Shown here piece by piece: positions 2,150 through 61,689 of a stretch of 64,000 bases of DNA. The notes under the pieces are model-generated. The model saw only the letters and a program-made list of their open reading frames with translations. It searched no databases and had not been told where the DNA came from. Both the position numbers and the translations under genes were made by a program. The DNA is taken from the IMG/VR virus record IMGVR_UViG_3300028800_000062, positions 32,001 through 96,000 of that record. The stretch is one strand, 5' to 3'. This DNA is from a virus. Numbering within the stretch: position 1 is the first letter of the stretch; each line of letters starts with the position of its first letter.

Positions 2150-2365
2150 ATGATGACTCTCCGATCTGCGGTGATTAAAGGCCGTGCCCGCTTTACTCCG
2201 GATGGACTGCGCTGCGCGAATCCCCGGGAAGCGGACGAAGAGCGGTTGTGCAACAAGTTGATCTGCAAGCCAAATGATGCAGGTCAGACGGCCGGCAAGT
2301 TTCGTTGCGATCGCTGCAAGCAGGACATTGAAGTTGCTTTGGTCCTGCCGCGGCGCGTAGCTTAG
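2150..2365 (+). CDS. Mu Com-like zinc-finger protein (putative translational regulator)
   Basis: 71 aa with RC..(insertion)..CNKLI...FRCDRC, matching the Com-family pattern RCxxCNKLL...KCPRC; immediately upstream of the capsid gene. Confidence 0.6.
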   Translation: MMTLRSAVIKGRARFTPDGLRCANPREADEERLCNKLICKPNDAGQTAGKFRCDRCKQDIEVALVLPRRVA

Positions 2366-2390
2366 AGCAGTATTCAAACTAGAGGCTCAG

Positions 2391-2431
2391 TGGAAGCCCT
2401 AAGTCCTTTTCAAAGGAGTTAGGTACTTCCA
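2391..2431 (+). promoter_or_regulatory. SD-sequestering hairpin at the capsid translation start
   Basis: tggaag/cttcca, cctaa/ttagg and tcctt/aagga pair around a ttca loop, burying the SD (aaggag) and the A of ATG 2431. Confidence 0.7.
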
Positions 2432-3792
2432 TGGGTAAAAAAGCAGTCAAGAAAACGCAAGATTGGGCCGTCCAGCTGGACAAAGATGACCTGATTAACT
2501 TAAACCTGCTCGATACGGTCTTCCGTACCAACGGATTCGATCCGGACGGCGAGCACATGATCATGAAGGACGCGATGGATGTTCCCAACGCCGCGTTCCT
2601 GATTCCGCGTGTGCTAACCCAATTCGTGCAGGAAGGTGTGGAACCCCTGCTAGTCGGTGCCAACCTGTTGCAGCGGATTGAGTACATCCCCGGTATGCAG
2701 ACGGTCTTCCCGGCCATCGATGTGTTGAACGCGCGAGAAGTGGGCGACGGCATGGGCCTCCCCATCTTCAACATCAACATCGGCGGCGGCCAGACTTACG
2801 GCGTGTCCGTCAAACGGCACGGCCTGATGCTGCGCATCGCGGAGCGCTTTGTTGACCAGAGTTCCTACCCGTGGCTCAACTGGTGGGTCAAGCTCGCTGG
2901 TCAAGCCCTGGCGCGCCACAAGGAAGAGTACATCTTCAACTGGATCACCTCTTTGGGCACGTTGGTCTTCGATAACTCCACCGCCGCCCGCACCACCAAC
3001 GGCGCCGGTCTGACCACCAGTGGCCAGGCGCAACCTATCAAGGGCGTCACCACCGGCCGCAACATCATGGGTGTTTTCAACGGCTCCATGACCATGGACG
3101 ACGTCTATGATCTGTACGCCACCACGCTGACTCAGGGCTTCATTCCCGACACCCTGTTAGTGCACCCAATGACCTATCTCATGTGGGTCAAGGACCCGGT
3201 TATGAGAGAATTTGCAATCCAAGCCGGCGGTGGAAACTTCTTCCAGGCCTTTACAGGCAACGCTGCGGCTAAGGCATTCGAAGGGCAGTACAACTTCTTC
3301 GGCCTCGGCCAGGGTCTTGGACAAACCGGTAAGTTCGAAAACGGTACGCAGCTCGGCACCGGGCAGACCGGGACCGCACAGGGACTGCCGCAAAACCAGA
3401 CCTCCGCTCCCACGCTGCTCAACTATTTGGGCCTCAACTTCACCATCCTGGTGTCGCCGTTTGTGCGCTTCGACCCGCTCGGCCGCAATACGGACATCAT
3501 GCTGTTTGACCGCCGCAACCTGGGCGCCCTGATCGTCGACGAAGATCCGCACGTCAACTCATTCAACGATCCGCACTACAACCTCCGCAACATCGGTGTG
3601 GAGGAGACGTACGGCTTCGGCATTTTGAATGAAGGACAGGCCATCACCGTAGCCAAGAACGTGGCCATCCGCCCGAACGAGTTTGTCCTGCCGGCCCGCG
3701 CCGTGATGAATATCAGCGAAGCAGGCAGCACGTTCCAACAGCTCAGCACCATCAACCAGTTCGGTACCAATCCGACCTCGGTATTGTCGTAA
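2431..3792 (+). CDS. Major capsid protein (HK97-fold, large-phage type)
   Basis: 453 aa; segments LIPRVLTQFVQEGVEP, KRHGLMLRIAERF, GQALARHKEE, PDTLLVHP, EETYGFGILNEGQAI are typical of large-phage capsid proteins; strong SD and downstream terminator. Confidence 0.9.
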   Translation: MGKKAVKKTQDWAVQLDKDDLINLNLLDTVFRTNGFDPDGEHMIMKDAMDVPNAAFLIPRVLTQFVQEGVEPLLVGANLLQRIEYIPGMQTVFPAIDVLNAREVGDGMGLPIFNINIGGGQTYGVSVKRHGLMLRIAERFVDQSSYPWLNWWVKLAGQALARHKEEYIFNWITSLGTLVFDNSTAARTTNGAGLTTSGQAQPIKGVTTGRNIMGVFNGSMTMDDVYDLYATTLTQGFIPDTLLVHPMTYLMWVKDPVMREFAIQAGGGNFFQAFTGNAAAKAFEGQYNFFGLGQGLGQTGKFENGTQLGTGQTGTAQGLPQNQTSAPTLLNYLGLNFTILVSPFVRFDPLGRNTDIMLFDRRNLGALIVDEDPHVNSFNDPHYNLRNIGVEETYGFGILNEGQAITVAKNVAIRPNEFVLPARAVMNISEAGSTFQQLSTINQFGTNPTSVLS

Positions 3793-3800
3793 TCCTACCA

Positions 3801-3843
3801 CGGAGGCGGCGGTTTAGCGACTGCCGCCTCCGGTTCACTTTTC
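3801..3843 (+). terminator. Intrinsic terminator after the capsid gene
   Basis: 13-bp stem cggaggcggcggt/actgccgcctccg followed by gttcactttt. Confidence 0.8.
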
Positions 3844-16659: not shown

Positions 16660-16677
16660 CTATACTAGCAAAGGGTG
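16660..16677 (+). promoter_or_regulatory. CTATACTAGCAA promoter-like motif (copy 1)
   Basis: ctatactagcaaagggtg, 17/18 identical to 45311..45328; intergenic, directly before an in-frame GTG. Confidence 0.55.
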
Positions 16678-17342
16678 TGACAGGTGAAATATTGATTGGG
16701 GGTACGGCTGCTTTTGCGGTGCCGCCCAAGATGTCCAGTCGAGCGCCCCTGGACCACTTATCACTGTATCAGGCATTTGTCGACTGTTTCAGCCTGGCAG
16801 CCCAGACCTTGGAGTGGCCTTCCCAGAACCAGCCCAAGTTGGTGGAGGAGTATCCGGCGCAGCGCGAGGGTGAGTTTGACACGAGTTTCGACATTATCCT
16901 GATGAGCCTGGCGGGCAGCCATGTATCGTCCACCAGCAACAGACGAGACCAGCGGCCCAAGGGAATTGAGGAAGTTTCCCGCATCCCCTACCCGGGGTTA
17001 ACGGGATACCTGCAGGTGCGCAGCAAGTGGGAGGAGGACGTTCAGGTACGTTTCGACGTGCTGTCCAAGTCCAACCGCAAAGCCAATGAGTTGGCTATGT
17101 GGTGGCATCGCACCCTGGTGGTGTACGCGCAAAGCCTGAAGTTCTTTATGGCGCGCGGCGTGAACGATTTCCGGTTCGCTGAACGGCTGGCGGACCAGAC
17201 AACAAAGGAATATGGCCAGACATTGTACTGCAGGCCGCTGCTTTATACGTTGCGGCTGGAACTGGACATCCTGACCAAGTGCAAGACCTTGGACCAGATT
17301 AATATGCGTCTGGGATCCTCCAAGATTGAAATCGACGGTTAG
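16677..17342 (+). CDS. Putative tail completion/terminator protein
   Basis: Immediately upstream of the sheath; VRFDVLSKSNRKANELA...RPLLYTLRLE pattern. Start uncertain (GTG 16677 preferred over 16620). Confidence 0.55.
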   Translation: MTGEILIGGTAAFAVPPKMSSRAPLDHLSLYQAFVDCFSLAAQTLEWPSQNQPKLVEEYPAQREGEFDTSFDIILMSLAGSHVSSTSNRRDQRPKGIEEVSRIPYPGLTGYLQVRSKWEEDVQVRFDVLSKSNRKANELAMWWHRTLVVYAQSLKFFMARGVNDFRFAERLADQTTKEYGQTLYCRPLLYTLRLELDILTKCKTLDQINMRLGSSKIEIDG

Positions 17343-17366
17343 AAGCCGCACTCGAATGGGAGATCG

Positions 17367-19320: not shown

Positions 19321-19387
19321 TCCTGCCTAGCGTAATCTTGGCACAACTTTCATTCGCGAGGCCCTTAGGTCCGTTAAGGAGACTCAA

Positions 19388-20089
19388 ATGTCAACGACTC
19401 CAGGTCTAACGGATGCCATCGCGAACAGCACCAACAACACATTTTCCGGCAGCGACATCCGTGCATACATAGGCCCTGTCCCGTTCGGACAGATGCAGGC
19501 GATTTCTTATTCCATCAGCCGGGAAAAAGCTCCCGTCTATACCATGGGCAGCCCGGATCCTCGCAGCTTCTCGCGCAACAAGCGCGGTATCGCAGGCTCG
19601 CTGGTATGGATCCTGTTTGACCGGCACGCTCTGCTGGCTCTGGCCGCACAGCTTAGCGGTACCTTCCTCGCTAACCGCGATGACGTGAATCCGACATTCC
19701 TGTCGCCGATCGCGCCGAGCGGAGGTTATGTTTCGCCGCAGGTGTTCAATACCACGCTGGTGCGCAACGACGGTACTTTGCCGGCCGCAGTAGGCAGCGC
19801 CGCCGCCGCGCAACCCCTTCAGGATATGTCCCTGGCCGCTAACTTCAAAGTGGTGTCTGCACCCTGGTATTCGGATCAGATCCTGCCGTTTGATGTCACC
19901 ATGTCCGGCGTGAATGAGTATGGCGCCGCGATGGGGATGAAGATCTTCGGTGTCGAAATCCTGAATGAAGGCTACGGGGTGTCCGTGGATGACACGGTGA
20001 GTGAGATGCAGGCTACCTTCGTGGCCCGTTCCATCGAGCCGTGGCAGGCAGTGGCTACCAACCTGAACAGCTCATCCTGTCTGGTCTAA
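19388..20089 (+). CDS. Tail tube protein (major)
   Basis: FSGSDI...QAISYSISREKAPVYTMG...FSRNKRGIAGSL...DQILPFDV...GVEILNEG..SVDD; directly follows the sheath; strong SD. Confidence 0.8.
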   Translation: MSTTPGLTDAIANSTNNTFSGSDIRAYIGPVPFGQMQAISYSISREKAPVYTMGSPDPRSFSRNKRGIAGSLVWILFDRHALLALAAQLSGTFLANRDDVNPTFLSPIAPSGGYVSPQVFNTTLVRNDGTLPAAVGSAAAAQPLQDMSLAANFKVVSAPWYSDQILPFDVTMSGVNEYGAAMGMKIFGVEILNEGYGVSVDDTVSEMQATFVARSIEPWQAVATNLNSSSCLV

Positions 20090-20116
20090 TCCTACCGGCT
20101 GGACTGAAAGGCGCGC

Positions 20117-21001
20117 ATGTCCTACACTAATCCGCCGGATCTGTTGACCGGGGGTTTGGGCGCCAGCGGCAATCCGTTAGACCCCGGCGGATCGCTGCCG
20201 GCTCCGTCTCAAATCCTCACCAACGGCCTGACGCCTCCATCTCCGACCCTCGAGGTCGGTCCCATGGAGAGCACCGGCCGGGACTTGAGTTCCAGCAGCA
20301 GCAGCCAGAGCCAATCTTCCGCACCGGCATCCGCCCCGTATTCCTCCTCTCCCTCGTCCGCCGACGCCGGTGTGCTGGGAGCCGCCCAGGCTCCCGCCTC
20401 CGGCACCAAACTCACCGACACCGCCATTGCCCAGATCGAGTCCGGCCAATATGTGTTCAGCGGCGCGGATATGAGGGCGTACCTGGAGCTGCCCGGCAAT
20501 AAGCTCCGGCAGCTGATCGAACTCACCACCGTTACGGTCTCCGTGCATCGCGAGAAGGCTCCCGTCAGGGCCTGTGGGTATATCGGAGCCAAAGGCTATG
20601 CCCGCGGCCGGCGGACGCTGGCCGGCACCATCATTCTCACGCAGTTCCAGGCCGACTTTATGCTGCGCTTTCTGGGGCAGACCAATGATAAGGATGAGAG
20701 CAAGGACACCCAGATCCTGAAAGTGGACCAGCTGCCGCCCTTCAATCTTTATCTCTATTTTGGCGACGAGTATGGCTGCCAGAGTTACCGGCACATCCTG
20801 GGCGTGGATATCGTCACGGATGGAACGGTGCATAGCGCACAGGATCTCTACAGCGAGCGGACTCTTTCTTATGTGGCCTCCGACTTTACGCCACTGCTCC
20901 CCATCAGCGCCGCCAGCACCGCGACGCCGACGGATCAGCGCCTGGCCGGAGCCGAGAAGACTCCCAAAGAAGCGGTGAATTCCACCATCACGTTCATTTG
21001 A
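20117..21001 (+). CDS. Tail tube-like paralogue (tube initiator/baseplate-proximal)
   Basis: FSGADM...TVSVHREKAPVRACG...RGRRTLAGT...DQLPPF aligns motif-by-motif with the tube protein; low-complexity N-terminus. Confidence 0.7.
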   Translation: MSYTNPPDLLTGGLGASGNPLDPGGSLPAPSQILTNGLTPPSPTLEVGPMESTGRDLSSSSSSQSQSSAPASAPYSSSPSSADAGVLGAAQAPASGTKLTDTAIAQIESGQYVFSGADMRAYLELPGNKLRQLIELTTVTVSVHREKAPVRACGYIGAKGYARGRRTLAGTIILTQFQADFMLRFLGQTNDKDESKDTQILKVDQLPPFNLYLYFGDEYGCQSYRHILGVDIVTDGTVHSAQDLYSERTLSYVASDFTPLLPISAASTATPTDQRLAGAEKTPKEAVNSTITFI

Positions 21002-21007
21002 TTCCTA

Positions 21008-22297
21008 ATGCCCAACGCCTCGGTTAATGTCAACGTCATCTCCGCCAGCACAGGTCAACCGGTGCAATCCGCGATCTATGTCAACGGGAGCTACACCTCC
21101 AATCTTGGTGCAGCGTCGCTGGCGGTGCAGGTCCCACAAGGGCAGACGACCGAAGTCAAGGCAGTCCCGATTAACAGCGACGGCAGCAAGGATAACTCCC
21201 GCGCAGCTACGCGGATACTGTCGGACCAGGATTCTAATGCTACGATCACGGTTCCCGACAGCCTTCCCAGCCCGGCAACCCTGACGCTCGAGGCGCCGGC
21301 CAACAGTAGCGGCGTATCCGTTTCCCTGGCCGGGCCTCCGGATTCAAACGGTAATCCTATCTCCCAGCAAGGTACCACGGACGACAACGGGCAGTTGACC
21401 TTCGCGAATCTACCGGCGGGAGACTATACCTACTCCGCATCCCATCCTGCTTACCAGGACCTGTCCCAGCAACCGATCTCCCTGGCCGCCGGCCAAACTG
21501 CCACCGCGGGCATGCCGATGGTGGCCAAGACCAGCCCGCAGGCGATCGGCGGCAGTTTACCGGTCTCCGATAACGGCGCCAATGCTTCTTCGAACACCGC
21601 ACTGGCCGGCCTGGCCGACGCGCAGTCGCAGGACGCGGCCTTCGACCAGGTCTATTCGAACACTTCCTGGGACACCTACTTTACCTCCGCCCAGTGCCGG
21701 GTCTATATAGGCGACTTGTTCATCGACGAGCTGCAGGCCATCCAGTATTCAGCGCCCAACAACATCATTCCCGTGCATGGATACGCCAGCCGCTTCGCCG
21801 ACGCCTGGGCCGACGGCAAGAGTTTGATTCAGGGCCAGCTGATTCTTAACTACGTCTCTGAGACGTACATGTACACGGTACTGGCCAACTACCGCAGGTT
21901 TCTGGTCTCGCAGTCGGTCCCGAGCGCGGCCGCGGATGCCACCAGTCAGAGTGCCCAGCAGCTCGGCAACGCCTTGAAAGCCCGTAAGTATCTGTTGGCC
22001 TCCAGTGAGGATGCCGATACTACCGCCATCGACAGCACCATTCAGACCCTGGTGCAGGACCCGGCCACGGTGCAGCAGCATAAACAGAATCAGCAGGGTC
22101 GTGGCCCGGGCTCCATTTATATCAACGCCATCTACCAACCCATCGCTTTTGACATCCGGGTGGAGATCGGGTCAGGGTCTTCGCGCACCTATAGGCAACT
22201 AGAAAAGTGCAGGCTGACCGGCAACGACCAGATCATCGACCAGTCCGGCAACGTGATCGCGGACGTCTACAGTTTCCTCGCCCGCCGGCTGCGTTAA
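21008..22297 (+). CDS. Tube-like paralogue with N-terminal beta-sandwich (carboxypeptidase-regulatory-like) domains
   Basis: TTDDNGQLTFANLPAGDYTYSASHPAY; C-terminal YFTSAQCRVYIG...IPVHGYAS...GKSLIQGQLILN...YSFLAR tube-like domain. Confidence 0.6.
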   Translation: MPNASVNVNVISASTGQPVQSAIYVNGSYTSNLGAASLAVQVPQGQTTEVKAVPINSDGSKDNSRAATRILSDQDSNATITVPDSLPSPATLTLEAPANSSGVSVSLAGPPDSNGNPISQQGTTDDNGQLTFANLPAGDYTYSASHPAYQDLSQQPISLAAGQTATAGMPMVAKTSPQAIGGSLPVSDNGANASSNTALAGLADAQSQDAAFDQVYSNTSWDTYFTSAQCRVYIGDLFIDELQAIQYSAPNNIIPVHGYASRFADAWADGKSLIQGQLILNYVSETYMYTVLANYRRFLVSQSVPSAAADATSQSAQQLGNALKARKYLLASSEDADTTAIDSTIQTLVQDPATVQQHKQNQQGRGPGSIYINAIYQPIAFDIRVEIGSGSSRTYRQLEKCRLTGNDQIIDQSGNVIADVYSFLARRLR

Positions 22298-61674: not shown

Positions 61675-61689
61675 CAGTTGTTAGTATAG
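61672..61689 (-). promoter_or_regulatory. CTATACTAACAA promoter-like motif (copy 3)
   Basis: Minus strand reads ctatactaacaactggtg, ending in the GTG start of the 61674 gene. Confidence 0.5.

Follow-up and report, generated by a model that had tools for sequence, protein, structure and literature searches.

The DNA analysed here (the window, 64,000 nucleotides) is a segment of a 146.7-kb uncultured virus record, and the gene order in its first 4 kb is that of the head module of the Bacillus jumbo phage 0305phi8-36. The C-terminal portion of a long upstream ORF (positions 1-948) is followed by three genes on the plus strand, namely a gene encoding 389 amino acids (972-2141), a gene for a basic zinc-ribbon protein of 71 amino acids (2150-2365) and the gene of the major capsid protein (MCP; 453 amino acids, 2431-3792). 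Based on gene order, the 389-amino-acid product occupies the slot of the head-decoration protein gp124, to which it shows only weak local similarity (E 0.001), and no match to it was obtained in Pfam and PHROG scans. Identification of the MCP is based on a match to phrog_3922 (5e-16) and on 27% identity to gp125, the major head protein of 0305phi8-36 that was verified by mass spectrometry. A 14-bp hairpin with a T-rich tail (3801-3832, plus strand), located 3' of the capsid gene, resembles an intrinsic terminator and may mark the end of the head transcript.

The 146.7-kb record contains one copy of the zinc-ribbon gene. A distance of 65 nt separates its end from the capsid ATG at 2431, as stated in an initial annotation of this DNA, where the product of the gene had been described as a four-Cys protein. 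Its ATG is located 8 nt after the stop codon of the decoration-slot gene, and no recognisable Shine-Dalgarno (SD) sequence was found in front of it (2139-2152), which together suggest low-level translation by coupling or reinitiation. The capsid gene is preceded by the SD sequence AAGGAG (2413-2418, plus strand).

The zinc-ribbon protein and its relation to Com

The 71-amino-acid protein contains five cysteines. Four of them (C22, C34, C53 and C56) are invariant among relatives and are the predicted zinc ligands, and C39 is variable. The first knuckle has the form C-X11-C and the second C-X2-C, or C-X4-C in some relatives. A confident AlphaFold model (pLDDT 91) is all-beta; residues 5-22 form a structured beta extension at the N-terminus, and about six C-terminal residues follow the last strand.

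Direct scans of the protein against Pfam, PHROG and NCBIfam gave nothing usable. A PDB sequence search and Foldseek searches of PDB and BFVD with the model returned generic zinc ribbons only, none of them significant, and a search of the ESM Atlas yielded only unnamed viral cysteine-rich clusters. The proposal that the protein is "Com-like" holds as remote homology detected by profile methods and fails as Pfam membership: the window protein did not match PF10122 (Zn_ribbon_Com; gathering threshold 22.9 bits) at E≤1, and the best of six relatives scanned reached E 0.026. By profile methods, an alignment of six orthologues matched residues 7-35 of Mu Com with an hhalign probability of 94.9%. When 1.8 billion representatives were searched with the profile of the zinc-finger family, 63 proteins were found; the weaker matches are true members of PF10122 (P0050, P0055, P0059 and P0065; 30-37 bits), and some matches are intermediates. 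Comparison of the window family with the true PF10122 members, profile against profile, gave 98.6% (E 1e-15), a figure that is partly circular because these members had been found with the same profile. The aligned Com core differs in one major respect, a 9-residue insert between the first two cysteines of the window family, and it is the resulting C-X11-C in place of C-X2-C in the first knuckle that leaves the Pfam Com model unmatched. Judged by these sequence comparisons, the protein is a diverged branch of the Com family that lies outside Pfam membership.

Structure of the capsid leader

Folding of positions 2366-2450 with RNAfold gave a single hairpin of 21 bp (2385-2436, plus strand) which contains both the SD sequence and the AUG of the capsid gene and is a candidate translation-inhibition structure. 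It consists of a basal (2385-2389:2432-2436), a lower (2391-2396:2426-2431), a middle (2398-2402:2419-2423) and an apical helix (2404-2408:2413-2417). The imperfect hairpin of approximately 16 bp described previously (2391-2431) corresponds to the inner three helices, and its reported burial of the SD and of the first base of the start codon was borne out: the SD pairs with UCCUU (2404-2408) in the apical helix and A2431 with U2391, while U2432 and G2433 of the capsid start are paired as well, in the basal helix. The hairpin has a folding energy of -26.2 kcal/mol as compared with -16.1 ± 2.7 kcal/mol in dinucleotide shuffles (z -3.74), with one of 200 shuffles folding as well. Among the 51 called gene starts in the window, the ribosome-binding region of the capsid gene is the least accessible (unpaired probability 0.16). 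A search of Rfam assigned the leader to no family. Strong SD-occluding hairpins are able to silence translation unless they are opened, and by analogy a capsid leader hairpin of such strength should do the same.

Two other readings of the hairpin were discarded. It is not a terminator, as no U-run is present 3' of it on either strand. Opening by a ribosome that terminates on the zinc-finger ORF was rejected because the stop codon of this ORF is 20 nt upstream of the hairpin base, from where a terminating ribosome would not be expected to open it.

Two sequence boxes in the intergenic region, GAGGCT starting at 2382 and GAAGCC starting at 2393, had been pointed out in the initial annotation and are present at these positions. 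They turned out to be the arms of a small hairpin, HP1 (GA GGCU CAGUGGA AGCC C; 2382-2399, plus strand), which is a candidate protein-binding site. HP1 overlaps the 5' arm of the inhibitory hairpin, and the two structures share and compete for positions 2385-2387, 2395-2396 and 2398; when HP1 forms, the basal and lower helices cannot, and the middle helix loses C2398. When positions 2382-2402 were blocked to represent a protein footprint, the predicted unpaired probability of the AUG rose from 0.04 to 0.76, and with either the footprint or HP1 enforced it reached 0.76-0.79. At the same time, the stability of the fold dropped from -28 to -7.4 kcal/mol with the footprint and to -17.7 kcal/mol with HP1 forced alone. 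A 5-bp stem that holds the SD is the sole remainder of the inhibitory hairpin under the footprint, and the SD lies in the same stem when HP1 is enforced.

Conservation of the gene order and of the leader structures

Searches of IMG/VR and of metagenomes with the zinc-finger family provided 64 loci, which were combined with further loci. The collection includes 68 metagenomic loci with both the zinc-finger and the MCP gene, representing 28 distinct leaders. The arrangement of the gene in front of its presumed target is strictly conserved: in all 68 loci the zinc-finger gene is located directly upstream of the MCP gene and in the same orientation. Relatives with 38-40% MCP identity lack the zinc-finger gene, and the gap between decoration slot and MCP gene is 12-22 nt in them. 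The gene was not found in cultured phages.

The long hairpin has a much narrower distribution. Lack of conservation in relatives that keep the gene had been named as a finding that would refute the proposal, and the strong hairpin was detected in only two distinct variants, the nearest to the window (L001/L014, 88% capsid identity; L015-L017, 78%), and thus in three distinct sequences altogether. Both variants retain the lower and middle helices. Their apical stems differ from that of the window, each pairing its own SD (UCCUU/AAGGA in the window, UCUUUCACC/GGUGGAAGG and CUC/GAG in the two variants). Since the conserved stems include G-U pairs, they probably represent an RNA-level rather than a DNA element. 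In the other 25 distinct leaders which keep the gene, z-scores of whole-leader folds are near 0, and the SD region, at -4.7 versus -4.0 kcal/mol in flank-shuffled controls, is no better than these. This restriction to the closest variants weakens the case for a general SD-occlusion switch. The two close variants show structure-preserving changes. In the AU-rich subgroup RNAalifold yielded no consensus structure, and the formal count of covarying pairs was modest.

Many of these 25 leaders place the SD inside a short stem (ACCC-uAGGA-GGGU, for example); read by eye, the outer pairs vary between lineages yet stay complementary. SD occlusion in all relatives was nevertheless rejected because the CCC-AGGA-GGG mini-hairpins are as stable as flank-shuffled controls. 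The small stems bear on the possibility that the protein, once bound to the capsid leader, represses or tunes translation by stabilising the SD hairpin or by competing with the ribosome, thereby setting the ratio of capsid to scaffold and decoration proteins. The coat-operator pair of MS2 is the model for regulation of this kind. It would fit with the fact that in many relatives the loop or the 3' arm of a small (A)CCC-nAGGA-GGG(U) hairpin contains the SD. By our own reading, this hairpin contains the Com loop motif CC(N)2-3GAG (PMC6483171), so that binding would mask the SD. However, the mini-hairpins are no more stable than expected by chance, the only characterised member of the family is an activator, and the window leader is already silent unaided by its predicted fold (-26 kcal/mol), such that a repressor would add little. 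We thus regard repression as quite improbable.

Counterparts of HP1 are more widespread than the long hairpin. In the three close variants its arms are invariant and the loop comprises 7, 8 or 13 nt. The strict form of the element (GA, a 4-bp stem, a loop beginning with C, then C) is present in 11 of 28 leaders versus 0.78 expected from shuffles (maximum 4), and a relaxed form in 21 of 29 leaders versus 4.8 ± 2.1, an enrichment to be read in the light of a pattern defined after seeing the data, of phylogenetically related leaders and of a stem of only 4 bp. The distance from the end of the relaxed form to the ATG is 15-45 nt in 15 of 28 MCP leaders as compared with 11% of pseudo-starts, and this placement was seen at 7 of 56 other SD-bearing ORF starts of the same loci (Fisher p 1e-4 versus MCP leaders). 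At least six complementary stems were found across lineages (GGCU/AGCC, AGUC/GACU, GAUU/AAUC, GGUU/AACC, GGUU/GGCC and GUUC/GAAC), with modest formal covariation in one subgroup. The same pattern also precedes the cargo gene in four of five bona fide Com systems examined (Mu, JD024, UMP151 and Phipami28).

Some zinc ribbons of the wider family are encoded away from capsid genes, one after an HNH endonuclease gene and another between portal and protease genes. The latter (P0057; L147, 3001-3195) is a distant member in an unrelated phage where it is flanked by Mu-type portal/MuF and head-maturation-protease genes, and its position indicates that Com-like ribbons recur in head modules. In two further loci, L048 and L051, the 3' end of the zinc-finger gene carries an inserted HNH endonuclease gene, with the capsid leader left intact. 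The affected region of L048 (2447-3236) contains an HNH ORF of 149 amino acids (2694-3143) and a duplicated downstream remnant encoding the original C-terminus ...EIEVEIAVRS. This looks like insertion of a homing endonuclease into a conserved gene.

The genomic context may also be taken to indicate that the zinc ribbon functions in head assembly, as a minor virion protein or in another non-regulatory role, and that the hairpin is an independent feature of the mRNA such as a translation brake or a stabilising stem. Compatible with this are the location of the gene within a morphogenesis module, the distant member between portal and head-maturation-protease genes, which has a 12-nt gap and no hairpin, and the fact that the majority of gene-keeping relatives are devoid of a strong inhibitory hairpin. 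It is at odds with the small size and basic nature of a protein whose sole detectable homology is to an RNA-binding translational regulator, and with the co-occurrence of the gene and a Mu-type candidate binding hairpin in MCP leaders. Moreover, the leader elements of L048 remained with the MCP gene despite the HNH gene that separates them from the zinc-finger gene, which is expected of a trans-acting factor and its cis site. A structural or otherwise non-regulatory function appears unlikely to us.

Further candidate sites in the genome

Hairpins similar to HP1 are present in two other leaders of the window. One of them (GA CGGU UAGAA GCCG C; 17334-17349, plus strand) ends 23 nt before the ATG of the tail-sheath gene (17373), and the other (GA GGCC CUUA GGUC C; 19358-19372, plus strand) ends 15 nt before the ATG at 19388 of the gene that follows the sheath gene and occupies the tail-tube slot. 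They are possible, weak second and third targets. In the closest relative they are kept as CGGU/ACCG and, with a different loop, as GGCC/GGCC, which amounts to one one-sided pair-preserving change each, a G-U pair having become a Watson-Crick pair. Both hairpins are missing from most of the more distant relatives. Across the genome, a relaxed GA-hairpin upstream of genes was found in 16 of 166 cases, which is about the background rate and no enrichment. It is conceivable that the Com-like protein acts as a dedicated late translational activator of a small regulon made up of the virion proteins of highest copy number, namely capsid, sheath and tube, in this uncultured jumbo-phage clade, with one GA-hairpin-C site per leader; we judge such a regulon to be unlikely and treat the sheath and tube targets as a lead only. 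If it did exist, virion protein synthesis would be gated post-transcriptionally by a factor whose own translation depends on upstream head genes.

Two candidate features of these leaders were dismissed. An SD-occluding fold on the tube leader is unsupported (whole-leader z +0.19), and the common 11-mer GARGCCCTWAG is exact only at the capsid and tube leaders, its count with one mismatch being equal to chance.

The gene at 19388 is the first of three consecutive paralogs after the sheath gene (19388-22297; 233, 245 and 429 amino acids), all of which match phrog_9206. The label "major head protein" of this family is probably wrong because the position of the genes suggests tail-tube-like proteins.

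The sequence cTATACTA[AG]CAA occurs in 10 copies in the genome, of which those at 16661, 29563 and 45312 (plus strand) and at 61688 (minus strand) are located in the window and six elsewhere in the 146.7-kb record. All copies have the same 3' extension and most precede genes; flanking bases of several copies could pair, in which case the loop of a hairpin would contain the motif. It may serve as a promoter of the phage or as a site of processing. The motif is also present in the spacer between zinc-finger and MCP genes of L021, L035, L044 and L048, and it is absent from the spacer of the window.

Alternatively, the zinc ribbon may act elsewhere, for instance as a DNA-binding late transcription factor, with the hairpin opened or removed by other means such as a nuclease, a host factor, a phage helicase or a small RNA. 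In favour of this are the occurrence of the promoter-like motif in several of the spacers and the precedent of Ogr (phage P2) and Delta, Cys4 proteins of about 72 amino acids which switch on late structural genes. Yet matches to DNA-binding families were not obtained, and Ogr/Delta (PF04606) in particular was not matched in Pfam scans of the window protein and five relatives at E≤10. The G-U pairs in the conserved stems argue for elements acting at the RNA level, and cleavage of the stem by RNase III would presumably part the SD from the AUG. Taken together, action of the protein on a different target is very doubtful.

Discussion

Com is the textbook example of translational activation through the remodelling of an mRNA hairpin by a protein. 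To our knowledge, the mom gene, the product of which is harmful to the host cell, is the only target on which Com has been studied. The initial annotation had suggested that the same switch is applied to capsid synthesis at the locus described here. Synteny, remote homology to Com and the presence of a Mu-type short hairpin speak for this idea. Against it stand the restriction of the strong hairpin to three distinct sequences, the lack of a match between the window protein and the Pfam Com model, the wider-family members located away from capsid genes and the SD stem that persists when HP1 is enforced. We give about an even chance to the model that a Com-type translational activator was retargeted to the capsid gene.

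According to this model, the zinc-ribbon gene would share a late head transcript with the capsid gene. No promoter-like motif was found between the two genes in the window, and therefore they are probably co-transcribed, as are com and mom. On its own, the capsid leader would fold into the 21-bp hairpin that hides SD and AUG, and the capsid mRNA would be translationally silent. The protein, a putative RNA-binding protein, would then bind to HP1 (GA, stem GGCU/AGCC, loop C...GGA, then C). As HP1 formation makes use of bases of the basal and lower helices and of C2398, the inhibitory structure would collapse and the AUG become exposed. The weak 5-bp SD stem left after binding could be opened by the ribosome. 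From the parallel with Com we infer that the direction of the effect is activation, translation probably being the step at which capsid synthesis is turned on. The adaptive logic may be held against silencing, since a capsid gene needs maximal output, and we have counted this against the model.

If the model is correct, translational gating by phages extends to their most abundant structural protein, and it is tempting to speculate that capsid synthesis would thereby be delayed until scaffold, protease and decoration proteins are in place. A second defined RNA target would become available for the Com family, which is large and for the most part uncharacterised, and the natural sequence variation of the leaders would allow the rules of binding to be read. 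With a protein of 71 amino acids and an RNA of 85 nt, the system is small and directly testable in vitro.

Comparison with known systems

The head module of 0305phi8-36 has the same order of genes (gp122 portal, gp123 protease/scaffold, gp124 decoration, gp125 major head) and a homologous capsid protein. It differs by the lack of a zinc-finger gene, and its gp124-gp125 spacer of 71 nt leaves the SD free (unpaired probability 0.81) and includes a stem that resembles a terminator.

In Mu, the Com-binding hairpin GA AUGC CUGCGA GCAU C abuts and overlaps the inhibition structure, and the published model holds that the latter is melted when Com binds to the adjacent short hairpin (PMC6483171). The outcome of folding the window leader with the footprint or with HP1 mirrors this model. 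The likeness extends to the proteins, both of which are small Cys4 zinc ribbons with the common core CNKL(L/I).K...(F/I).C.RC..I, and to the arrangement of a regulator gene directly upstream of, and co-oriented with, its presumed target. In the window and the two close variants, as in com-mom, a hairpin of the target leader contains the SD and the start codon, and next to the inhibition structure, in partial overlap with it, lies a short hairpin of the form GA-4 bp-C-loop-4 bp-C. By contrast, the first knuckle is C-X2-C in Com and C-X11-C in the window protein, and Com has a disordered C-terminal tail where the window family is predicted to have a conserved N-terminal beta extension instead. 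Likewise, the HP1 loop UC-AGUG-GAA, or UC(N)4GAA, departs from the CC(N)2-3GAG motif of Com. Whereas com overlaps its target gene, the window gene ends 65 nt before it, and the inhibitory hairpin is predicted at -26 kcal/mol as compared with about -9 kcal/mol in our own fold of the Mu leader. Finally, the presumed target is the major capsid protein and not a toxic DNA-modification enzyme.

The idea of a com-plus-cargo cassette is not new because a range of cargo genes, including those of methyltransferases, bacteriocins, lysis enzymes and levansucrases, has already been reported to be preceded by Com-like genes (PMC3299994, PMC6240691). In the Mu-like phages B3, FluMu, UMP151 and Chuche they precede DNA methyltransferase genes, and in Pseudomonas their cargo comprises lectin-like bacteriocins, tailocin lysis enzymes and levansucrases; the locus in the window would be another instance of such cassette reuse. 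Unlike the window protein, the Com proteins of these systems score above the PF10122 threshold, and the cargo may harm the cell that produces it. The literature searched contained no report of a Com-like gene that precedes a capsid gene or belongs to a jumbo phage. What is new, as far as can be read from the sequences compared here, is a diverged Com subfamily fixed upstream of the major capsid gene in jumbo phages, together with a predicted inhibitory hairpin that is far stronger than that of Mu.
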